Of a DNA stretch of 64,000 nt, positions 6,385 to 47,544 are shown piece by piece. The notes beneath the pieces are model-generated. The model saw only the letters and a list, made by a program, of their open reading frames with translations. It did no database searches and had not been told where the DNA came from. Each line of letters begins with the position of its first letter. Within the stretch, counting starts at the first letter, position 1. A program made the translations under genes and the position numbers. The stretch lies in the NCBI RefSeq assembly GCF_016026235.1, contig NZ_CP065613.1; one strand, 5' to 3'. Origin of the DNA: Escherichia coli. Its GTDB lineage: Bacteria; Pseudomonadota; Gammaproteobacteria; Enterobacterales; Enterobacteriaceae.

Positions 6385-6470
6385 GCCGCTGACGCGACTT
6401 ATCAGGCCTACGGGTGTACTGAACTGTAGGTCGGATAAGACGCATGGCGTCGCATCCGACAACAATCCCG
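6385..6470. repeat. BIME made of two inverted REP elements in the prpB-prpC spacer
   Basis: gcctgatgcg...cttatcaggcctac and gtaggtcggataag...gcatccgac palindromic units. Confidence 0.7.
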
Positions 6471-6502
6471 ACCCTACAAATGATAACAATGACGAGGACA
6501 AC

Positions 6503-7672
6503 ATGAGCGACACAACGATCCTGCAAAACAGTACCCATGTCATTAAACCGAAAAAATCTGTGGCGCTTTCTGGCGTTTCGGCGGGCAATACGGCGCTCTG
6601 CACCGTGGGTAAAAGTGGCAATGACTTGCATTACCGTAGTTACGATATTCTTGATCTGGCGGAACATTGCGAATTTGAAGAAGTGGCGCATCTGCTGATC
6701 CACGGCAAACTGCCGACCCGTGACGAACTCGCCGCTTACAAAACGAAACTGAAAGCCCTGCGCGGTTTACCGGCTAATGTGCGTACTGTGCTGGAAGCCT
6801 TACCGGCGGCGTCGCACCCGATGGATGTTATGCGCACCGGCGTTTCCGCGCTCGGCTGCACGCTGCCAGAAAAAGAGGGGCATACCGTCTCCGGCGCGCG
6901 GGATATTGCCGACAAACTGTTGGCGTCGCTGAGCTCGATTCTTCTCTACTGGTATCACTACAGCCATAACGGCGAACGCATCCAGCCGGAAACCGATGAC
7001 GACTCAATAGGCGGTCACTTCCTGCATCTGCTGCACGGCGAAAAGCCATCGCAAAGCTGGGAAAAGGCGATGCATATTTCGCTAGTGCTGTACGCCGAAC
7101 ACGAGTTTAACGCCTCCACCTTTACCAGTCGGGTGATTGCGGGCACCGGCTCTGATATGTATTCCGCGATTATTGGCGCGATTGGCGCACTGCGCGGGCC
7201 GAAGCACGGCGGGGCGAATGAAGTGTCGCTGGAGATCCAGCAACGCTACGAAACGCCAGACGAAGCCGAAGCCGATATCCGCAAGCGGGTGGAAAACAAA
7301 GAAGTGGTCATTGGTTTTGGTCATCCGGTTTATACCATCGCCGACCCGCGCCACCAGGTGATTAAACGTGTGGCGAAGCAGCTCTCGCAGGAAGGCGGCT
7401 CGCTGAAGATGTACAACATCGCCGATCGTCTGGAAACGGTGATGTGGGAGAGCAAAAAGATGTTCCCCAATCTCGACTGGTTCTCCGCTGTTTCCTACAA
7501 CATGATGGGCGTTCCCACCGAGATGTTCACACCACTGTTTGTTATCGCCCGCGTCACCGGCTGGGCGGCGCACATTATCGAACAACGTCAGGACAACAAA
7601 ATTATCCGTCCTTCCGCCAATTATGTTGGACCGGAAGACCGCCAGTTTGTCGCGCTGGATAAGCGCCAGTAA
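6503..7672 (+). CDS. prpC: 2-methylcitrate synthase (389 aa)
   Basis: Citrate-synthase family; start set at MSDTTILQN, because the longer ORF from 6374 reads through the REP element. Confidence 0.93.
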
Positions 7673-35857: not shown

Positions 35858-35877
35858 ACATAGATAAGTCGTGCGCA

Positions 35878-35970
35878 GATGCCTGATGCGACGCTTACGC
35901 GTCTTATCATGCCTACGGCTCATGGGCGAAATGTAGGCCGGATAAGGCGTTCACGCCGCATCCGGCAGTT
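35878..35970. repeat. REP pair (BIME) between yaiL and frmB
   Basis: gcctgatgcgacgc...cttatcatgcctac and gtaggccggataaggcg...gcatccggc. Confidence 0.7.
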
Positions 35971-35981
35971 GTGCACTATTA

Positions 35982-38051: not shown

Positions 38052-38327
38052 CTATTTAAGATAGGCACGAACCAGTTCAATAGTGTCGTCAACGGATTGG
38101 CTGACTTCGCGGCTGTAGCAGTCATTTCGGTCAAACGTTTCCCGGATATGGCTTTCAAGCACTTCTGCCATCAGCCCATTAGCCGCGCCCCGAACGGCAG
38201 CGATCTGTTGGAGTATGGCACGGCATTCGGCATCACCCTCCAGCGACCGTTCCAGAGCATCAATCTGCCCTCGAATACGACGAACTCGAGTAAGGACCTT
38301 TTTCTTCTCTTCCGGAGTACTGGGCAT
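38052..38327 (-). CDS. frmR: Formaldehyde-responsive repressor (CsoR/RcnR family), 91 aa
   Basis: Start at [10 protein letters not shown]; small all-helical repressor. Confidence 0.9.
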
Positions 38328-38353
38328 TTCGCACCTCATCATCTGCACGCAAT

Positions 38354-38402
38354 ATACTATAGGGGGGTATGCTATATGTCAATACATACCCCCCTATAGT
38401 AT
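38354..38402. promoter_or_regulatory. Candidate FrmR operator: two perfect 17-bp inverted repeats with G6/C6 tracts
   Basis: ATACTATAGGGGGGTAT at 38354-38370 and ATACCCCCCTATAGTAT at 38386-38402, immediately upstream of frmR. Confidence 0.7.
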
Positions 38403-38445
38403 ATAACACTGGAGAATAATTGTTGTCCGAAGCCTAACCAGGTGA

Positions 38446-38473
38446 ACGGTCCCTCAAGACAGATGGGGACCGT
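38446..38473. other. Hairpin acggtccc/gggaccgt immediately downstream of afuC; possible transcriptional insulator between the afu cluster and the frmR promoter
   Basis: 8-bp stem with 12-nt loop; no clear U-tract on the afu strand. Confidence 0.3.
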
Positions 38474-38486
38474 TTATGTGCTATTT

Positions 38487-39533
38487 TTATGCCGCATCCG
38501 CTAAAACAAACATCCCGTAAGGATGGATTTCGAGGTAATAGTGCTCACCAATATCGGGCTGTAAACGGGTGGCGTTTACTTGTAATAAAATCTCCTGTCC
38601 ATGCCACTCTACGGTCACTTCGTACTGCGGCCCCATGTAGGCGACATGGCGAATAACACAACGCTGACTCTCTTCGCCGTGATTGCTTAAGGTGATGGCT
38701 TCCGGGCGAACGCCGACGGTGCCGCTACCTTGCGCCGGGAAATGCGCCGCGCGCGGCAGGCGATAACCGTAGATATCGACATACTCTTCGCTAAAGTTCG
38801 CCGGGAACAGGTTGGCGTCGCCCATAAAACTTGCCATAAAGCGGGAGGCTGGCTGACGATAGAGCTCCTGCGGTGAGCCAATCTGCATGATGTGACCTTT
38901 ATTCATCACCAGCACAGTGTCGGACACCGCGAAAGCTTCACTTTGATCGTGAGTGACGTAGAGCGACGTGATATTAAACTGCTTTTGCAGCTCGCGGATC
39001 TTATCGCGCATACTGCGGCGCAGGTTGGCATCGAGGTTACTTAACGGCTCATCAAACAGCAGCACCTTTGGCTTGAGGATCAACGCGCGGGCCAGTGCCA
39101 CTCGCTGTTGCTGACCACCGGAAATCTGATCGACATAGCGGTCCTCGAAGCCTTCCAGATCCACCATTGCCAGCGCCTCCTTCACCCGCTGTTTCACTTC
39201 GCTACGCGAGACGCCAAGCATCTTCAGCCCGTAGCCAACGTTTTCACCCAGCGACATATGCGGGAACAGAGCGTATGACTGAAACACCATGCAGATATCG
39301 CGCTGTTGAATGGAACGATGCGTGACATCTTCGCCATCAATAAAAATTTGCCCTTCGCTCGGTTTTTCCAGCCCGGCAACCAGACGCAAAATGGTGGTTT
39401 TGCCACAGCCGGAAGGACCGAGCAGCGTCACCATTTGCCCTTGTGGAATGGTGAGATTGATATTGTCGATAACCGTATTACTGCCGAATCGTTTAGTGAC
39501 GTTGCGCAGTTCAACAAAATTTTTCTGACTCAT
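38487..39533 (-). CDS. afuC: ABC transporter ATP-binding subunit (AfuC/FbpC-type), about 348 aa
   Basis: Walker [13 protein letters not shown] signature [12 protein letters not shown], Walker B LLFDEP; start at MSQKNF, with an alternative ATG at 39545 overlapping the afuB stop. Confidence 0.85.
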
Positions 39534-39544
39534 ATTGCGCTCCA

Positions 39545-41623
39545 TTACGCCTGGTTTTTGGCTTTAGAACGGGAGATACGAGCTTCTCCGATCAGCCAGT
39601 CAAAGAGGAAAATAATCGCCAGCATCACCACGATCAGAATCGAACCATAGGCGATGGCTACGCCATATTCGCCGTCTTCAACGCGGTTAAGAATGTAGGC
39701 GGTTGCCACGCGGGTGTCCGGCGTGACGAGAAAGACGATGGCGCTGACCGTCGTGATGGCCCGCACAAAGCTGTAGATCAGGGCCGAGAGAATGGCCGGA
39801 CGCAGCAGCGGCAGTAAAATGTGGGTTATGGTTCGCAAGGAACCCGCGCGCAGGCTGAGTGAGGCTTCATCCAGCGATTTGTCGATCTGCCCCAGACCCG
39901 CAATCCCGGCGCGAATACCCACCGGAACGTTACGCATCACCATCGAGATAATCACAATTGCCGCCGTTCCGGTGAGATAAACCGGAGCGCTGTTAAAGGC
40001 AAGAATATACGAAACGCCCGCCACCGTACCCGGTACGGCAAAGCACAGCATGGTGGTGAACTCGATGGTCTTTTTGCCTTTGAATTGTTGACGCACCACC
40101 ACCCAGGCGATGAGCAGGCCAAAGATAGCGGTAATGGGAGCGGCAATCCCGGCGTAGAGCAGGGTATCCAGCAGTGAAGGCCACGCGCCGTCGCTCATTC
40201 CCTGACCAAATAGCTTGATAAAGTTATCCAGCGTCAGGGTGTAGTCCACGCCCCAGTTCACCGTGAAGCTGCCGTAGAAAATGCTGCCGTAGAGCAGGGC
40301 GTTAAAGGCAATCCATATCGCAAGTATGGCGACCACGCTCCACACCAGGGTGACCGGTAGCGGCTGGACGTCGCCACGGTAGGATTTGCCGGAAACCGTG
40401 ACGTAAGAGCGTTTACCAATCCACATATACTGGATGCAGAACACCAGCAGCGAGAACAGCAGCAGGAAAGCGCCAAGGGTGCTGGCGGCCTGATAATCCA
40501 GCTGCGAGCCGGTAATATAGAAGTAAATTTGCGTCGCCAGTACGTCGAAGTTACCGCCAAGTACCAGCGGGTTACTGAAATCAGCCAGTGACTGTACCAC
40601 GACGATTAAAAAGGCATTGGCGAGTGCGGGCTTCAACAACGGCACAAACACGCCGTTAAAGGTTTGCCAGCGGCTGGCGCGCAGGGTGTAGGAGGCCTCT
40701 TCCAGCGAGGGATGAATGGTTTTAATGGCCCCGTCGAGGATCATAAATGCCATTGGCGTGAATGCCAGAACCTGTGCCAGCCAGATCCCGGTAAAACCGT
40801 ACAGCCAGTTGGTGTTGGTCAGCCCAAACCACTCCACCATAAATTCCGTAACATAGCCGGAGCGCCCCATCATGAGCGTCACGCCTAAGCCGACCACAAA
40901 CGGTGGCGTAACGATGGGCAAAATGGAAAAGATGCGACCAATAATGGCGCTGCGTTTAGCGATGCGCGTGGTATAAATCGCCAGCACCAGGCCGAAGAAA
41001 GTACAGCCTATCCCCACCGCTATCGACAAGACGATAGAGTTGACGATCACCTGAACAATATGTGCCTGCGAGAGCACGGTCATAAACGCCAGCGGGGCGA
41101 ACTCTCCCGCGTCGTTGGTGAACATCGGGATAAAAATGGCGATGCTCGGCCAGACGATAAAAATGCCAATCAGCGCCACAATCGCAATCAGTGAGCCGAT
41201 CACGAAGCGGTCGCCACCCAGCCATTCGAGGCGGGTTAAGGCCAGCGTCATAATCGCGCCTAGTTCGACAAACAGCACGATGGCGGCGTAGCCTAAACCG
41301 CGTCCAACCACGGTGGCGCTGATGACGATAAACGCCATACAGAGCAATGCCCAGCCGGCATCGAAATAATGACGGCTACGTTGTTCGCGCGTGGCCTCAC
41401 TAAACGGGCGGACCAGCAACAGGCTCGGGAGTAAATACCACAGCCAGCTGATATTAAAATGCGACCAGCCGTACGCCCCGAGGATCTCATCACTCGTGGA
41501 CTCCAGCAGGCCATAATCGAGGCTCCAGCTCGGCAACAGTATAAATGCCAGCCAGCCCAGCAAAACCCAAAGGAAAATCGCATCCCGCTTTTTCACGGGA
41601 TGGAGTGCAAGTGTCTGTGACAT
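39545..41623 (-). CDS. afuB: ABC transporter permease, fused two-domain type (AfuB/FbpB-like), 692 aa
   Basis: 692-aa polytopic membrane protein with duplicated permease domains; lies between afuA and afuC. Confidence 0.85.
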
Positions 41624-41691
41624 AGCAGTTCCGGTATGGTTGGCCGGGGCAGGCGTTTGTGCTGCACCCGGAAAATACGCCTAATGCGGGT

Positions 41692-42723
41692 TTATTTACC
41701 CATCTTCACTTCGCTGACCCATTTATTAATCAATGCCTTACGAACATCCGTGGAACCATATTTATCCATGTCGTAGTTGATTAATTTCAGGTCGTCGAGC
41801 TTCAGTGAATTTGGCGACGTTTCGGCGGTGGTATTGGTCAGGATCTGATAAGACTTCCCTTTCTTCCACGCCAGTTCCTGAGCTTCTTTTGATAATACCC
41901 AGTCCACAAACAGTTTGGCGTTGTCGAGGTTGCGCGCGCCTTTCAGAATGCTGACGCCGCCAATTTCGTAGCCTGTACCTTCACACGGGGAAATCAACTC
42001 CAGCGGCGCGCCCTGTTCTTTTTCCAGCGAGTAGTCATGCAGGAAGCCAATACCAATCGCCGTTTCGCCACGGGCGGCGTTACGTGCCGGGGCTATGCCT
42101 GATTTGGTGTACTGAGAGACGTTGGCGTTCAGTTGTTTTAGATAATCAAAGGCCTGATCTTCCCCCCACAGCTGCGCAAAAGTAGCCAGGGCGGTGTAGG
42201 CAGTACCGGAACTTTGCGGATCGGCAATTTGAATTTCGCCTTTATATTCCGGTTTGGTGAGATCTTTCCAGCACTTCGGCACCGGCAGGTTTTTCTCTTT
42301 CAGACGATCGGTGTTTACGCCAAAACCGAGGATCCCCACATAAACGGCAGAGGACAGATTCCCTTTCACTTTTGCCGGATCGCGGAATTTCTCCATGATC
42401 TGCTCAAGGTTAGGGGATTTATACGCCTGTAGCAGGCCCATCTCGCCAGCCTGCGATTGTGGGTCTAAAGTGCCGCCGTACCAGACGTCAGCCTGGGGGT
42501 TTTTCTTTTCAGCATCGACTTTTGCCAGGGTGCTTCCGGAACCGTTGCGGATAAACGAGGTTTTTACATCATATTTCTCGCCAAACGCTTTGGTTTCGGC
42601 CTCACACATTTCATTGGTGGCGCTGCAATAGACCACCAGCCGGCCTTTTGCCTGCGCGGCACCCGTTAAAGTCGCCAGCGCAACGGCAGAAGCAATCAGA
42701 GTAGAGGTAAAGGTCATTTTCAT
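41692..42723 (-). CDS. afuA: Periplasmic substrate-binding protein (AfuA/FbpA-like), 343 aa
   Basis: Signal peptide MKMTFTSTLIASAVALATLTGAAQA; start at 42723, overlapping the stop of the upstream MFS gene by 2 nt. Confidence 0.8.
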   Translation of the reverse strand: MKMTFTSTLIASAVALATLTGAAQAKGRLVVYCSATNEMCEAETKAFGEKYDVKTSFIRNGSGSTLAKVDAEKKNPQADVWYGGTLDPQSQAGEMGLLQAYKSPNLEQIMEKFRDPAKVKGNLSSAVYVGILGFGVNTDRLKEKNLPVPKCWKDLTKPEYKGEIQIADPQSSGTAYTALATFAQLWGEDQAFDYLKQLNANVSQYTKSGIAPARNAARGETAIGIGFLHDYSLEKEQGAPLELISPCEGTGYEIGGVSILKGARNLDNAKLFVDWVLSKEAQELAWKKGKSYQILTNTTAETSPNSLKLDDLKLINYDMDKYGSTDVRKALINKWVSEVKMGK

Positions 42724-44036
42724 TGTTTTATCCTTCGAGCGTGAGTGGTGGTGATGCCCGCCATCAGTAACGGCATCAGCAGTAAACCCATAAGTACTGC
42801 GGCGACCGAGAGTAAACTGAACATTCCCGGCCAGCCGTAGCGTTCGATGACCAGCGACAGCGGCCAGCCTGCCAGCGCTGCGCCAAGGTAAGCGAACAGG
42901 CCGAGAAATCCGGTGATTGAACCCGCCGCAGCTTTGTGCCCACACTCCACCGCCGCAAGTCCAATCAGCATTTGTGGGCCAAAGACGAAAAAGCCCACGG
43001 TAAAAAAGCACACTGCCAGCAGAGCGTAGTGATGAACCGGTGCCAGCCACAGTGCGGCGACTGACACCATCAACCCCAACGTGAACAGCAAAATCATTGG
43101 CGCTCGTTGCCCGCTAAACAGCAAATCCGATCCCCATCCGGCAAATAACGCGCCGAGTAAGCCGCCCACTTCAAACAGCATTACCGTGGCGTTGGCGCTG
43201 AGCAGGTTGACACCGTGGCTTTCCGTCAGCCAGATATTGCCCCAGTCGTTAAGCGCAATCCGGATCACATAAACCAGTACATAAGAGACGCCCAGTAGCC
43301 AGATCAGCGGATTTTGCAGCATGGTGGTGCGCAACATTTGCCACAGCCCCATCGGCGGACTTTGTTGTTCCTGACGTAACTCCAGCGGATCGTGACGCCA
43401 GTGACCAACTGTCGGTAATCCCTCTTCCTGGGGCGTGCCTTTGAGTTGTAGCGTTAACCAGATCCCTAATGCCATGCTGATTATCCCCGGTGTCAGCATC
43501 GCGGCCTGCCAGCCCCACCAGTGGGCGGCAAAGGCGCTAATCAGCGGAATAATCGCTCCGCCAATGTTGATCGACATATTCCAGCAGCCCCACCAGAAAC
43601 CGCGCTCATTGCGTGAGTACCAGTGGGTCAGCAAGCGGGCACACGGTGGCCATCCCCAGCCCTGAAAAAAACCGTTCAGTGTCCAGACCACAAGCAGAAG
43701 CGTAAGTGATTCGCCAAAGGCAAACACCACGTTCAATAACCCGGTGGCGAACAAGCCGACGCCCATAAAACCGCGTTGTCCGTGGCTGTCATGCCACAGT
43801 CCGGCGGTAAATTTCGACAATCCGTAGCTGAGATAAAACAGCGAACCCAGCAGGCCAATGTCGCCTTTATCCAGTCCGAGGTCGGTTTGTAGCGCCGGAA
43901 GGACGTAATTCACGCTTTTTCGCGTCAGATAAAATGCGGCGTAGCCAATAATCATGCACATCAGCAATCGCGGACGTAATGTCCGGTAGCATTGATCAAT
44001 TTCTCTCGCTGAACGCGCGTGCATGGTTGTCTCCAT
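42720..44036 (-). CDS. UhpC-like MFS sugar-phosphate sensor/transporter, 438 aa
   Basis: MFS organophosphate:phosphate antiporter family; UhpC-like blocks FFQGWGWPPCARLLTHWYSRNERGFWW and FFVFGPQMLIGLAAVECGHKAAAGSITGF. Confidence 0.8.
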   Translation of the reverse strand: METTMHARSAREIDQCYRTLRPRLLMCMIIGYAAFYLTRKSVNYVLPALQTDLGLDKGDIGLLGSLFYLSYGLSKFTAGLWHDSHGQRGFMGVGLFATGLLNVVFAFGESLTLLLVVWTLNGFFQGWGWPPCARLLTHWYSRNERGFWWGCWNMSINIGGAIIPLISAFAAHWWGWQAAMLTPGIISMALGIWLTLQLKGTPQEEGLPTVGHWRHDPLELRQEQQSPPMGLWQMLRTTMLQNPLIWLLGVSYVLVYVIRIALNDWGNIWLTESHGVNLLSANATVMLFEVGGLLGALFAGWGSDLLFSGQRAPMILLFTLGLMVSVAALWLAPVHHYALLAVCFFTVGFFVFGPQMLIGLAAVECGHKAAAGSITGFLGLFAYLGAALAGWPLSLVIERYGWPGMFSLLSVAAVLMGLLLMPLLMAGITTTHARRIKQ

Positions 44037-44108
44037 GTTGCTGACTATATGAAAATGAAAGTGAAAGGGGATGAGAGAAAATCCGGGATACCTAAGACTT
44101 TTTCCTGG

Positions 44109-45650
44109 TTATCCGGCGATTTGTTGCAAAAATGTGGGCAAGTTAACAATTACCCGCGTGCCGTGCTGTTTTTCGAGCGTTAAGTCGCCGCCCAGGGCGC
44201 TGACGCGCTCACGCATCCCCTGAATGCCAAATCCGGCCATTTTCCCGCTGGCGATCCCCACACCGTTGTCGCTGACTTCCAGATGCAATACCTCTCCCTG
44301 CTGGCGCAGGATAATCGTCACTTCGCTGGCTTCGGCGTGTTTACAGATGTTATTGAGCAACTCCTGCAATAACCGATACAAGGTAAAGCGCACCGTTTCG
44401 TTTTCTGGTGTGGAGTTCAGTTGATAGGCAAACTGGCAATGAATGCCGCGTTCACTAAAGGCAAATTCATTAATCAGATGCAGCAACGCTTCGCGAAATG
44501 TCAGTTCATCAAGCGCGGGAGGCCGCAACTGGCGCAGCAATTGGCGGGTGGAGAGATGAATGCGGCGGGCGAGCTCATTGATTTGGCTGGCTGCGGATTG
44601 AATTTGCGCCGGATCACGCGCCCGCTTCACCAGTTGCGACTGGATCTGAATGGCGGTGATGTTCTGACCGATTTCGTCGTGCAGCTCTCGCGCCAGGTTT
44701 TTTCGCGTGTCCTCCTCGGTGTGGATCAGCTTTTCCGCCAATGCCCGCCGCGCTGCCAGCTCGGCCTCCAGCCGTTGTCGGTAATGGTGCAGGTTTAGCG
44801 CCAGATGTTGCTGGCGACTGATGGCAATGCCCAGGCCAATTCCCAGCAAGGCCTGGGTCGCGAGGAAAATCTCCAGCTCCACCAGGTTACTAAAGCCCAC
44901 GCCAATCTGGCGGGCGATGGTGATCATCATGCTGCCCAAAAGCCCGGAGAGTACGCCACCTTGCCAGCCAAATTTCCACGCCATCACCACATTGGGCAAA
45001 AAGACCACGATCAACAGCAGACGTTCAATTTCAGGTGACAGCACCATCTGAGTGCCGATACCAATAATAAAAAACAGGCTACACCAGATGATTAAAGAGG
45101 TACGCAAGGGGGGATTATGCGTATCGAGTCCCAGGAGCTGGTAGCGATGCTGCTGGCGCAGAAACTCAAAGATAAGATAGACAAACGGCGTCAGTAATAC
45201 GCCGCCGGTAAATGAGGTCAAACCCGGCAGCATTATTGGGCCTGACATAAAAGGGGAGAGCAGGGCGGTATTCAACAATGAAGCTGCCGTGACAGTGGCT
45301 AACAGCAACGTCAGACGCTGCCAGTAAAGTGGAAAACGGTGCCAGAAGTTTTGCGCGAGGAGGACAGGAAACAGGCTAATAACCGGCGTTGCCAGCATGA
45401 GATAACCGTTCAATAGCTGTTCACTATGGAGCCAGAACATCATCAGCAAAGGGGGGAGCACCAACGCAGGCCAGTAGCGGCGAGAGAGCAAAATAACAAG
45501 GGCGAGATAAACTCCCTGCGGGAGAAACAACACCGCCTGTTGACCGTTATTGGTCAGATAAAAGCTGAGCGTCCACAGCATCAGCCAGCCGGTTCCCCAG
45601 GCCAGCACAATAAACAGCGAAATCACCCAATGACGAAGATTGCGCGACAT
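44109..45650 (-). CDS. UhpB-like sensor histidine kinase (polytopic N-terminal domain, HisKA_3, HATPase), 513 aa
   Basis: H-box LARELHDEIGQ, C-terminal ATPase (EVSDNGVGI ... GFGIQGMRERV), about 8 TM helices. Confidence 0.8.
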   Translation of the reverse strand: MSRNLRHWVISLFIVLAWGTGWLMLWTLSFYLTNNGQQAVLFLPQGVYLALVILLSRRYWPALVLPPLLMMFWLHSEQLLNGYLMLATPVISLFPVLLAQNFWHRFPLYWQRLTLLLATVTAASLLNTALLSPFMSGPIMLPGLTSFTGGVLLTPFVYLIFEFLRQQHRYQLLGLDTHNPPLRTSLIIWCSLFFIIGIGTQMVLSPEIERLLLIVVFLPNVVMAWKFGWQGGVLSGLLGSMMITIARQIGVGFSNLVELEIFLATQALLGIGLGIAISRQQHLALNLHHYRQRLEAELAARRALAEKLIHTEEDTRKNLARELHDEIGQNITAIQIQSQLVKRARDPAQIQSAASQINELARRIHLSTRQLLRQLRPPALDELTFREALLHLINEFAFSERGIHCQFAYQLNSTPENETVRFTLYRLLQELLNNICKHAEASEVTIILRQQGEVLHLEVSDNGVGIASGKMAGFGIQGMRERVSALGGDLTLEKQHGTRVIVNLPTFLQQIAG

Positions 45651-46279
45651 TAATGCCCCGCCAGCAGATGGTGGTCGAGCGCAAAATGTACCAGTTCAAT
45701 GGTGCTATGGCAGTTCAGTTTTCCCAGCACATTGGCGCGATGCACATGTACCGTTTTATGACTGAGTTCGAGTTTAAAGGCGATCTCTTTAACGCTGTCT
45801 CCTTTGACCAGTAAATCAAACACTTCACGTTCTCGTGGGGTGAGAATTTCCAGCGCCTGGGCGGGTTGCCCGCCGCCGCGTAAAGCCCGAATCGCATCGG
45901 CACAGAGATAATGCCCGCCCAGCCCGACCGAGCGCACCGCCTGCACTAACTCTTCCGGCCCACAGCGTTTGGTTAAATACCCGCTGGCACCGGCATCCAG
46001 CGCGCTTTGCACAAAGGTTGGCGCGTCATAAATGCTAAGAATAATGGCGCGAAATTGCGGTTTTTGTGCACGCAGGCGCTTAAGCAAACTGAGGCCGTTT
46101 TCGTCCGGCATGGCAATATCAATGACGGCAACATTGACGTCATCACGGATTAATGCCGACCATGCCTGCGCGGCACTACTGTACTGACCAATGACCTCCA
46201 GATCGTCTTCCAGAGAGAGTAATTGTGCGAAGCCAGAGCGCACCACCACATGGTCATCCACCAGCACTACCCGAATCAT
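45650..46279 (-). CDS. UhpA-like response regulator (NarL/FixJ family, LuxR-type HTH), 209 aa
   Basis: Receiver domain VVLVDDHVVVRSGF ... DIAMPDENG; C-terminal LTPREREVF ... SHKTVHVHRANVLGKL. Confidence 0.85.
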   Translation of the reverse strand: MIRVVLVDDHVVVRSGFAQLLSLEDDLEVIGQYSSAAQAWSALIRDDVNVAVIDIAMPDENGLSLLKRLRAQKPQFRAIILSIYDAPTFVQSALDAGASGYLTKRCGPEELVQAVRSVGLGGHYLCADAIRALRGGGQPAQALEILTPREREVFDLLVKGDSVKEIAFKLELSHKTVHVHRANVLGKLNCHSTIELVHFALDHHLLAGH

Positions 46280-46581
46280 ACTTTTCTTCTCTTATTATCT
46301 AATTCTCCTATCATGCATCACGGCGCGGCGCTGGCAATCAACCAGCGACAGATATGGAATGGATGTAACAAAATGGCAATAATTTGCCGGAGCGCGCACA
46401 TCTTATCTGGCTTGTGAACCGGCGGGATACGTTCGCCAAAACCGCAAAATGCGCAAACTCGCTAACCATTGCCGATTTTTTTCTAAAAACGCTTTGTTCT
46501 TAACAAGACCTTTTAATTCCTTTATCAAACTGACCCGCAACGAAATACTGCTCCCATAACAAGACAGGGGAGCAGACAATC

Positions 46582-47544
46582 ATGGCAATTTCATCGCGTA
46601 ACACACTTCTTGCCGCACTGGCATTCATCGCTTTTCAGGCACAGGCGGTGAACGTCACCGTGGCGTATCAAACCTCAGCCGAACCGGCGAAAGTGGCTCA
46701 GGCCGACAACACCTTTGCTAAAGAAAGCGGAGCAACCGTGGACTGGCGTAAGTTTGACAGCGGAGCCAGCATCGTGCGGGCGCTGGCTTCAGGCGACGTG
46801 CAAATCGGCAACCTCGGTTCCAGCCCGTTAGCGGTTGCAGCCAGCCAACAGGTGCCGATTGAAGTCTTCTTGCTGGCGTCAAAACTGGGTAACTCCGAAG
46901 CGCTGGTGGTAAAGAAAACTATCAGCAAACCGGAAGATCTGATTGGCAAACGCATCGCCGTACCGTTTATCTCCACCACCCACTACAGCCTGCTGGCGGC
47001 GCTGAAACACTGGGGCATTAAACCCGGGCAAGTGGAGATTGTGAACCTGCAGCCGCCCGCGATTATCGCTGCCTGGCAGCGGGGAGACATTGATGGTGCT
47101 TATGTCTGGGCACCGGCGGTTAACGCCCTGGAAAAAGACGGCAAGGTGCTGACCGATTCTGAACAGGTCGGGCAGTGGGGCGCGCCAACGCTGGACGTTT
47201 GGGTGGTGCGCAAAGATTTTGCCGAGAAACATCCTGAGGTCGTGAAAGCGTTCGCTAAAAGCGCCATCGATGCTCAGCAACCGTACATTGCTAACCCAGA
47301 CGTGTGGCTGAAACAGCCGGAAAACATCAGCAAACTGGCGCGTTTAAGCGGCGTGCCTGAAGGTGACGTTCCGGGGCTGGTGAAGGGGAATACCTATCTG
47401 ACGCCGCAGCAACAAACGGCAGAACTGACCGGACCGGTGAACAAAGCGATTATCGACACCGCGCAGTTTTTGAAAGAGCAGGGCAAGGTCCCGGCTGTAG
47501 CGAATGATTACAGCCAGTACGTTACCTCGCGCTTCGTGCAATAA
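46582..47544 (+). CDS. tauA: Taurine-binding periplasmic protein, 320 aa
   Basis: Signal peptide, NMT1/SsuA-like binding protein; first gene of tauABCD. Confidence 0.95.
   Translation: MAISSRNTLLAALAFIAFQAQAVNVTVAYQTSAEPAKVAQADNTFAKESGATVDWRKFDSGASIVRALASGDVQIGNLGSSPLAVAASQQVPIEVFLLASKLGNSEALVVKKTISKPEDLIGKRIAVPFISTTHYSLLAALKHWGIKPGQVEIVNLQPPAIIAAWQRGDIDGAYVWAPAVNALEKDGKVLTDSEQVGQWGAPTLDVWVVRKDFAEKHPEVVKAFAKSAIDAQQPYIANPDVWLKQPENISKLARLSGVPEGDVPGLVKGNTYLTPQQQTAELTGPVNKAIIDTAQFLKEQGKVPAVANDYSQYVTSRFVQ

Follow-up and report, generated by a model that had tools for sequence, protein, structure and literature searches.

ATP-driven importers of the AfuABC type were characterised by Sit et al. as sugar-phosphate transporters: the periplasmic AfuA of Actinobacillus was crystallised with glucose-6-phosphate (G6P), fructose-6-phosphate (F6P) and sedoheptulose-7-phosphate (S7P) (PDB 4R72-75), binds F6P, G6P and S7P with Kd values of 8-57 nM, and does not bind glucose, G1P, R5P or Pi; the Actinobacillus afuABC genes restore growth on G6P or F6P to E. 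coli lacking uhpT; and ITC together with growth assays confirmed the AfuABC of Citrobacter rodentium, whose genes lie on an equivalent island (PMC4546632). According to the same authors, a sugar-coordinating motif, His205/Asp206/Glu229, defines the AfuA family (PMC4546632). Three other described systems bear on any locus of this kind. The FbpABC/HitABC/SfuABC ferric-iron importers share with AfuABC the fold class of the binding protein (cluster D, type II), a fused double permease, a TOBE-domain ATPase and the vocabulary of annotation. The P5PAB system of Pasteurellaceae has a related binding protein, in which the phosphate-clamp residues are unchanged (PMC8427247). Finally, UhpABC-UhpT of E. 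coli transports the same class of substrates as AfuABC, the transporter being the Pi antiporter UhpT in the former as against an ATP-driven ABC system in the latter. Here we compare with these systems an afuABC locus in a 64,000-nucleotide stretch of Escherichia coli DNA (contig NZ_CP065613.1), which as a whole is termed the window below.

The six-gene island and its setting

A blastn comparison of the window with E. coli K-12 shows that homology stops at 38419 and restarts at 46544. The intervening island is bounded by frmR and tauA, with frmRAB and tauABCD as its flanks, and carries six genes, all on the minus strand, in the order fusR-fusK-uhpC-like-afuA-afuB-afuC (Table 1). It is O-island 20 (OI-20) of EHEC O157:H7: the proteins of the source strain differ from those of O157:H7 by 0-6 residues each, with AfuA 100% identical (WP_000784324.1), AfuB 99.1% identical, and FusK and FusR 99.6% and 99.5% identical to Z0462 and Z0463, respectively, amid like flanking genes. 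The final three genes are the co-oriented ORFs which a first-pass annotation, made from the letters alone, had delimited at 38487-42723, and its boundaries are reproduced here. The locus shares with the AfuABC systems of A. pleuropneumoniae, C. rodentium and EHEC OI-20 the system itself, the ligand contacts, the gene order and the frmR/tauA site, and we find no difference of substance between the published systems and that of the window. Among 80 related loci, which come from dozens of Enterobacterales genera, the six-gene order is intact in every one with sufficient flanking sequence. The FusKR/Z0461/AfuABC module is not confined to O157:H7: about 10% of complete E. coli genomes carry it, as do many Enterobacterales genera.

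Table 1. Features of the island and of the predicted promoter region, in window coordinates
Feature	Coordinates	Strand	Details
Island (OI-20 equivalent)	38420..46543		8124 bp; stands where K-12 has yaiO-yaiX-yaiP-ykiC-yaiS (blastn vs K-12)
afuC, ABC ATPase with TOBE domain	38487..39545	-	352 aa; ABC_tran + TOBE_2
afuB, fused two-domain ABC permease	39545..41623	-	692 aa; two BPD_transp_1 domains
afuA, periplasmic sugar-phosphate binding protein (by homology)	41692..42723	-	343 aa; signal peptide residues 1-25
uhpC-like MFS receptor (Z0461 of EHEC)	42720..44024	-	434 aa
Core promoter (predicted)	44044..44075	-	CTCAT 44075-44071 (CTCA -38..-35); poor -35; -10-like TATAGT 44049-44044
Predicted FusR (UhpA-type) site	44092..44108	-	17-bp element CCAGGAAAAAGTCTTAG; centre ~-63
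CRP-like site	44133..44148	-	TGTTAACTTGCCCACA; within fusK 3' end; centre -103.5; 8/10 to TGTGA-N6-TCACA
fusK, UhpB-like MASE1 histidine kinase (Z0462/Z0463 pair with fusR)	44109..45650	-	MASE1, HisKA_3, HATPase_c
fusR, UhpA-like NarL-family response regulator	45650..46279	-	REC, GerE

Pfam and NCBIfam place the three afuABC products in families of binding proteins (SBP_bac_6/8/11), permeases and 'ferric ABC ATPase', respectively. The Sec signal peptide of AfuA ends in AQA, before K, and RefSeq starts afuC at 39533, which gives a protein of 348 aa. Neither the afuA-afuB spacer nor the sequence 3' of afuC showed significant RNA structure (z-scores of -0.23 and -1.03, respectively), and generic searches of the island for promoters and terminators gave counts no higher than in shuffles. 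A hairpin 3' of afuC is a weak terminator candidate.

The substrate of AfuABC

We propose, with a probability of roughly 0.9, that the three genes at 38487-42723 encode AfuABC and that this system, driven by ATP and dependent on a binding protein, imports hexose and heptose phosphates rather than iron. AfuA shares 76.5% identity with the Actinobacillus orthologue crystallised as PDB 4R72-75 (E 1.5e-169), the binder of G6P, F6P and S7P, and retains all 17 of the 17 published ligand-contact residues along with all five residues that are mutationally essential or important, with S62, T174, H229, D230 and E253 corresponding to S37, T150, H205, D206 and E229 of Actinobacillus. The conservation extends well beyond the window: the five key and 17 contact residues are kept in 80/80 related loci save for one Ile-to-Val change, and the sugar-coordinating triad H229/D230/E253 is invariant in all 80. 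Such an importer would take up glucose-6-P, fructose-6-P, sedoheptulose-7-P and, weakly, mannose-6-P: AfuA would grip the sugar ring via His229, Asp230 and Glu253 and the phosphate via Ser62 and Thr174, and then dock onto the fused two-domain permease AfuB, with ATP hydrolysis by AfuC powering the uptake. The published binding and transport assays concern the Actinobacillus and Citrobacter proteins, the E. coli AfuABC being assigned by sequence. The sugar-phosphate reading is already known from Sit et al. 2015 (PLoS Pathog, PMC4546632); the first-pass annotation had stated correctly that AfuABC homologues in enteric pathogens were reported to import hexose and heptose phosphates. Its proposal that the locus is a sugar-phosphate importer for which an iron label would mislead is borne out by the identity with O157:H7, the similarity to the G6P/F6P/S7P binder, the 17 contacts, and the lack of both Tyr-Tyr/Glu iron ligands and a Fur box.

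The last two of these features speak against an alternative suggested by the family names and by the RefSeq name 'fbpC', namely ferric-iron uptake as by FbpABC/HitABC/SfuABC. The resemblance to FbpABC-type systems noted in the first pass is present and remote: PDB entries that do bind Fe(III) match AfuA weakly (E 1e-12 to 1e-5), whereas the AfuA structures match at E 1e-170. In the inspection of the binding cleft that had been suggested, the iron ligands proved to be replaced: in an alignment whose coverage is the Glu and Tyr-Tyr ligands, the Tyr-Tyr pair of HitA aligns with Leu228-His229 of AfuA, and its Glu ('YTEE') with a Gly ('YGGT'). For the His ligand, the N-terminal fragment of AfuA gave no canonical FbpA alignment in a comparison with the PDB. 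Thus, in comparison with FbpABC/HitABC/SfuABC, AfuA is without these iron ligands, its locus is without a Fur box, and the similarity of the binding proteins reaches only E~1e-12.

As regards regulation, older work is cited as reporting that the Actinobacillus afuABC genes are Fur-regulated and rescue siderophore-deficient E. coli. Against this, the Actinobacillus orthologue has nanomolar affinity for sugar phosphates, the older findings on iron having since been reinterpreted (PMC4546632), and a 2025 study saw lowered, not raised, afuA and afuC in iron-starved A. pleuropneumoniae. In the island itself, a scan of 38350-46600 with the 19-bp Fur consensus gave matches of at most 13/19, which lie within coding sequence, and the two promoter-bearing intergenic regions reach 12/19 and 11/19. 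Scores of 12-13 are routine when this 8.25 kb is shuffled, and Fur regulation of the island was rejected as not above this shuffled background, in keeping with the first-pass remark that no Fur-box-like signal was visible. Equally, as that annotation had stated, siderophore or iron genes are absent from the island, the neighbours of which are the frmRAB and tauABCD genes. An iron-importing function is hence scarcely credible and has already been largely refuted. Over the window as a whole, the highest-scoring Fur match (15/19, at 1095) falls inside an unrelated ORF. A structure 79% identical to AfuA (PDB 8X1A) carries an iron-binding label; our literature search found no paper on it.

The practical point here is one of annotation hygiene: with afuC named 'fbpC, ferric ABC transporter' in RefSeq, pipelines count the locus as an iron-uptake/virulence gene, whereas afuABC would be a means of carbon and phosphate uptake that helps gut colonisation and transmission.

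Import of some other phosphorylated compound, e.g., pyridoxal-5-phosphate, as by P5PA, or 2-aminoethylphosphonate, is likewise very improbable. AfuA is 50% identical to the PLP binder P5PA (PDB 6WCE), and the top NCBIfam models for AfuA and AfuB are PhnS2 and PhnU2. However, both models fall far short of their cut-offs (238 against 393 for PhnS2 and 249 against 593 for PhnU2), and P5PA has Thr, Ala and Ala at the sites where AfuA has Ser62, Asp230 and Glu253. A P5PA protein would have Thr37, Ala at both 206 and 229, and an identity to the P5PA seed sequences above 65%; with 50% identity, AfuA-type pocket residues and the G6P contacts as in AfuA at 17/17 positions, the window protein is none. 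Since P5PA differs at S37 (Thr), D206 (Ala) and E229 (Ala) (PMC8427247), the window protein, with the AfuA residues at these positions, is of the AfuA type.

The Uhp-like sensor module and its predicted promoter

Upstream of afuABC lie a regulator, a kinase and an MFS receptor that are paralogous to their UhpABC counterparts (50, 38 and 53% identity, respectively); the gene order, too, is shared. FusR and FusK have the domain architecture of UhpA and UhpB, whereas FusR scores 193.4 with the UhpA equivalog model (cut-off 258) and FusK 381.7 with that of UhpB (cut-off 408), and we take the two for paralogues, not orthologues, of UhpA and UhpB of K-12; the recognition helix of FusR, KTVHVHRAN, is nonetheless identical to that of UhpA. 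The uhpC-like protein, in contrast, exceeds the cut-off of the NCBIfam UhpC model (NF008661; 589 bits against 564) and is 52.7% identical to K-12 UhpC. It retains the equivalents of UhpT R46, K82 and R275, including both phosphate-binding arginines, and has Thr/Leu at the positions of UhpT D388/K391, close to the Thr/Val of UhpC. On these similarities, Z0461 is assigned to the organophosphate:phosphate antiporter family, as a protein of the UhpC type. Its start is marked by a conserved CGGAG-N7-ATG; the first ATG of the ORF, at 44036, overlaps this Shine-Dalgarno sequence and is probably not used as a start.

The chaining of the transporter to a sensor module that the first pass had described is tight: an ATGA (window 42723-42720) holds both the start codon of afuA and, overlapping it, the uhpC-like stop codon, with the UhpB-like kinase and UhpA-like regulator genes further upstream. 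In most of 31 aligned related loci, the gap between the two genes is short. That alignment has no conserved promoter elements between uhpC-like and afuA; a Shine-Dalgarno sequence, AAGGA, is all that is conserved, and an internal promoter at this point was rejected on these grounds.

A different picture emerges just downstream of fusK. Here, a 17-bp element (Table 1) is identical at 14 of 17 positions to the reverse complement of the inverted-repeat core of the uhpT promoter, GGCAAAAC-N15-GTTTTGCC, centred at -64, which we take to be the strong UhpA site. The element has one exact match in the window, where 0.14 would be expected at one mismatch or fewer, and the exact degenerate pattern recurs at the same place in 75/80 related loci; a looser pattern combined with a -10-like hexamer is found in 74/80, or, with the window, in 75/81 sequences. 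The spacing is nearly rigid: 42 nt separate the element from the -10 hexamer in 71 sequences and 43 nt in four, and the offset of the CTCAT is fixed. Further upstream, the CRP-like site occupies the position of the CRP site of the uhpT promoter, and its gap of 24 nt to the 17-bp element is fixed in 74/74 loci; because the site lies within coding sequence, its conservation may partly reflect protein constraint. The CTCA, too, is at the same position in the uhpT promoter. Taken together, the layout resembles that of the uhpT promoter in the CRP site at -103.5, the activator box at -63/-64, the CTCA at -35 and the -10 element. The two arrangements differ in the place of the regulated promoter, which follows uhpC in Uhp but precedes the uhpC-like gene here, so that the receptor would be autoregulated. 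We found no description of this promoter in the searchable literature.

A shared regulon or a separate fucose module

The published account of the module is of another kind. According to reviews, FusK responds to fucose, FusR represses the LEE, z0461 and the fuc genes, and deletion of z0461 hampers growth on fucose, with Z0461 published as a fucose importer; work from 2026 found again that fucose-dependent repression of the LEE is lost when fusKR is deleted. The published signal of the kinase is fucose, as against G6P for Uhp. This bears on the first-pass argument that the context points to a sugar-phosphate substrate, which is weaker than it had seemed: the neighbours are indeed Uhp-like by homology, but the module to which they belong has been published as the fucose sensor FusKR together with the fucose importer Z0461. 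Context alone would therefore not settle the substrate; the binding-site residues do.

The same reports favour the view that FusKR and Z0461 form a fucose sensor and fucose importer functionally separate from afuABC, their adjacency being uninformative on either substrate or regulation. We regard this as unlikely: Z0461 is of the UhpC type with both phosphate-binding arginines in place; its translation is coupled to that of afuA; all related loci with sufficient flanking sequence keep the six genes together; the promoter ahead of Z0461 copies that of uhpT; and the z0461 deletion could be polar on afuABC. As part of our main reading, we predict that afuABC is co-transcribed with the uhpC-like gene from an activator-dependent, CRP-assisted promoter of the uhpT type just downstream of fusK, and that FusR, as a UhpA paralogue, binds this promoter; in favour stand the ATGA overlap, the short junction devoid of a conserved promoter, the intact gene order, the conserved promoter geometry, the identical recognition helix and the joint up-regulation of afuB and Z0461-Z0463 mentioned below. 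A wider reading, which we put forward at somewhat short of even odds, is that the six genes constitute one conserved Uhp-like regulon, with afuABC in the place of uhpT. Under such a regulon, Z0461 would sense external organophosphate, FusK/FusR would relay the signal, and FusR~P together with CRP would activate the uhpT-type promoter and thereby expression of the uhpC-like gene and afuABC.

If the regulon is real, the published assignment of FusKR and Z0461 as fucose sensor and importer would be incomplete or secondary, and polar effects on afuABC might account for part of what is seen in z0461 mutants. The searchable literature yielded no paper that makes the link between the promoter and such a regulon. 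The breadth of the module and the uhpT-like promoter thus provide a testable hypothesis on the control of afuABC and on the primary target of the 'fucose' two-component system.

Two further observations concern the expression of these genes. In published work, FusKR is reported to repress z0461, where a uhpT-like activating promoter would naively predict otherwise. In bovine gut contents, afuB (Z0459) is up-regulated along with Z0461-Z0463.

Genes, borders and distribution of the island

The first-pass annotation, in its coordinates for an iron-transporter-like ABC system, had captured precisely the final three of six minus-strand genes flanked by frmR (38052-38348) and the divergent tauA (46582). 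The window comes from the E. coli chromosome; within it, 38400-46400 matches strain FDAARGOS_943 at 100% and O157:H7 strains at 99.1% identity, with the individual island proteins at 99.1-100% identity to their O157:H7 equivalents and AfuA identical. Comparison with K-12, which has yaiO-yaiX::IS2-yaiP-ykiC-yaiS in its place, sets the borders of the island at 38420-46543 (8124 bp). In EHEC the same region is O-island 20, the carrier of afuABC and fusKR (PMC4546632). The right junction (46544-46581) leaves just 38 nt before the start codon of tauA; thus, the entire K-12 tauA upstream regulatory region has been replaced by island sequence, and faint similarity is all that remains of it here.

Genes of the island and elements of the predicted promoter before the uhpC-like gene (44020-44150), numbered with TATAGT set as -12 to -7
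Feature	Description	Coordinates	Strand	Promoter position
fusR	NarL-family response regulator	46279-45650	minus	
fusK	MASE1 histidine kinase	45650-44109	minus	
uhpC-like	MFS protein	44036 or 44024 to 42720	minus	
afuA	periplasmic binding protein	42723-41692	minus	
afuB	692-aa fused double permease	41623-39545	minus	
afuC	ABC ATPase with TOBE domain	39545-38487	minus	
CRP-like site	TGTTAACTTGCCCACA, 8/10 match	in fusK 3' end	minus	centre -103.5
predicted UhpA-type box	17-bp CCAGGAAAAAGTCTTAG	44108-44092	minus	centre -63
CTCA box	CTCA		minus	-38 to -35
-10 hexamer	TATAGT	44049-44044	minus	-12 to -7

With each species represented by one genome, a scan recovered 348 loci encoding AfuA relatives. 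The best 80 of these span dozens of Enterobacterales genera, including Citrobacter, Klebsiella, Raoultella, Serratia, Enterobacter, Buttiauxella, Rahnella, Erwinia, Pantoea, Yersinia and Brenneria, and all share the order fusR-fusK-uhpC-like-afuA-afuB-afuC where there is enough flank to judge. Within E. coli, 518 of 5426 complete genomes carry the island, among them O145:H28, O169:H41 and animal isolates. This distribution is at odds with two statements made in reviews, namely that O157:H7 alone has FusKR and that the system was possibly acquired from Enterococcus.

The suspicion that an iron annotation would mislead proved real: RefSeq names afuC (38487-39545) fbpC, with generic names only for AfuA and AfuB. 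This iron label spreads automatically. In about 450 island-less E. coli genomes, of K-12 type (e.g., NC_017625; hits H37-H54), there is a separate fragment that covers afuC and the 3' end of afuB (query 88-1494) at 85.6% identity and is annotated as fbpC and a permease subunit. The fragment is the remnant of a second afu locus, and a few copies of it are found on plasmids. Separately, a ~108-bp repeat between yaiL and frmB (fghA) in the window (35867-35974) is 85-87% identical to four tandem copies in the K-12 mhpE/mhpT interval (K-12 374922-375374).

The substrate of AfuABC

In PDB searches, AfuA matches the Actinobacillus pleuropneumoniae AfuA (4R72-75; E = 1.5e-169, 76.5% identity), which was solved with G6P, F6P and S7P bound, whereas the ferric-binding HitA, FbpA, YfuA and SfuA are recovered only at E = 1e-12 to 1e-5. 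In the Actinobacillus protein, H205A, D206A and E229A abolish G6P binding and altering S37 or T150 weakens it (Sit et al., PMC4546632); the corresponding H229, D230, E253, S62 and T174 are all present in the window AfuA. More broadly, all 17 contact residues listed in the P5PA paper (PMC8427247) are identical in the window protein, and they are invariant across the 80 related loci, one Ile-to-Val change excepted. The same positions bear on whether the protein might instead be of the type of the PLP-binding paralogue P5PA: the latter carries Thr in place of S37 and Ala in place of both D206 and E229, and the window protein has the AfuA residues; hence, a P5PA-type identity is rejected.

The iron reading is contradicted at the Tyr-Tyr and Glu ligand positions. 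In the HMMER alignment, the di-tyrosine of the HitA motif NNYYWY lies opposite GFLHDY, with Tyr-Tyr replaced by Leu228-His229, and the Glu of YTEE faces the Gly of YGGT. Nor did a scan for the Fur consensus point to iron control: the best island match was 13/19, in coding sequence, with promoter regions at 12/19 or less, and shuffles of the island region routinely score 12-13, in keeping with the first-pass impression that a Fur box is absent. The site that scores highest across the entire window (15/19, TATTATGATTATCCTTATG, 1095-1113) is inside a 271-aa AT-rich ORF (948-1763), outside promoters, and is probably due to base composition.

At the level of sequence, both the transporter's identity and its binding pocket are shown, and its assignment as a sugar-phosphate importer is as secure as such evidence allows. 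The assignment itself is already known, as it restates Sit et al. 2015 (PMC4546632), the work behind the first-pass remark on sugar-phosphate import. There, in assays of the Actinobacillus and Citrobacter proteins, AfuA bound F6P, G6P and S7P with Kd values of 8-57 nM and left glucose, G1P, R5P and Pi unbound; Actinobacillus afuABC rescued an E. coli uhpT deletion mutant; and ITC and growth assays gave confirmation for the system of the equivalent island in C. rodentium.

The sensor module and a predicted uhpT-like promoter

The uhpC-like protein passes the UhpC model at 589 bits (cut-off 564). Five UhpT residues, R46, R275, K82, D388 and K391, are functionally important in the organophosphate:phosphate antiporter family; the uhpC-like protein retains equivalents of the phosphate-binding arginines R46 and R275 and the lysine K82, and has Thr/Leu at D388/K391, close to the Thr/Val of UhpC. 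FusK and FusR share the architecture of UhpB and UhpA (38% and 50% identity, respectively), with scores under the equivalog cut-offs, and the FusR recognition helix, KTVHVHRAN, is the same as that of UhpA. Thus, the hexose-phosphate-type context initially proposed is Uhp-like by homology, which makes the argument from it reasonable, but the module has been published as a fucose system, so that context alone is insufficient to decide the AfuABC substrate. In those reports, FusK/FusR are fucose-responsive and repress LEE, the fuc genes and z0461, and Z0461 is described as a helper of fucose import; a 2026 study reproduced the LEE repression dependent on fucose and FusKR. In published RNA-seq profiles, EDL933 in the contents of the bovine gut shows afuB (Z0459) up along with Z0461-Z0463.

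Even in loci with FusK identity as low as 55%, the 72-nt spacer between fusK and the uhpC-like gene shows striking conservation. Its 17-bp element has a single exact match across the 64-kb window, is a perfect palindrome (CCAGGAATTATTCCTGG) in some genera, and in degenerate form occurs once per locus, at the same place, in 75 of the 80 related loci. Its spacing to the -10 measures 42 nt (71 sequences) or 43 nt (4 sequences), and its gap to the CRP-like site is 24 nt in 74/74 loci. The arrangement parallels the K-12 uhpT promoter, where the inverted repeat GGCAAAAC-N15-GTTTTGCC is centred at -64 as against -63 in the island, the CRP site and CTCA occupy the same positions, and the -10 is TACAAT rather than TATAGT; the core of the repeat agrees with the island element, reverse-complemented, at 14/17 positions. 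The UhpA site of uhpT presumably extends from -80 to -50. Published work places the uhpT CRP site near -103, with UhpA sites ~30 bp downstream (PMC5352689, PMC4790336). In Raoultella planticola (6440-6690 of its locus), and in this species only, a ~190-bp insertion separates the promoter elements from the uhpC-like start, with the -10 and Shine-Dalgarno region apparently duplicated downstream of it.

We propose that the island would constitute a Uhp-like regulon with the ABC importer occupying the uhpT slot, in which a CRP-assisted, FusR-dependent promoter would drive the transporter and the receptor gene alike. Its physiological signal may be a sugar phosphate perceived by way of the UhpC-like protein, the published fucose, or both. 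The published repression of z0461 by FusKR counts against FusR acting as a simple activator here. We found no description of the uhpT-like promoter or the regulon link in the searchable literature, where the observation appears to be undescribed, and we offer this reading as new, with moderate probability, somewhat below even.

The uhpC-like gene and afuA are likely to be co-transcribed, judging from the ATGA overlap of stop codon and afuA ATG in the window, the short gaps in most of 31 aligned related loci, and the Shine-Dalgarno sequence as the sole conserved element in those gaps. As for the uhpC-like start, CGGAG-N7-ATG is conserved at the second ATG (44024), which is therefore probably the true one rather than 44036; the first ATG overlaps the conserved Shine-Dalgarno sequence (ATGGAG in E. 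coli, ACGGAG in other genera). RefSeq uses 44024 for FDAARGOS_943 and a longer, 438-aa form in O157:H7 records.
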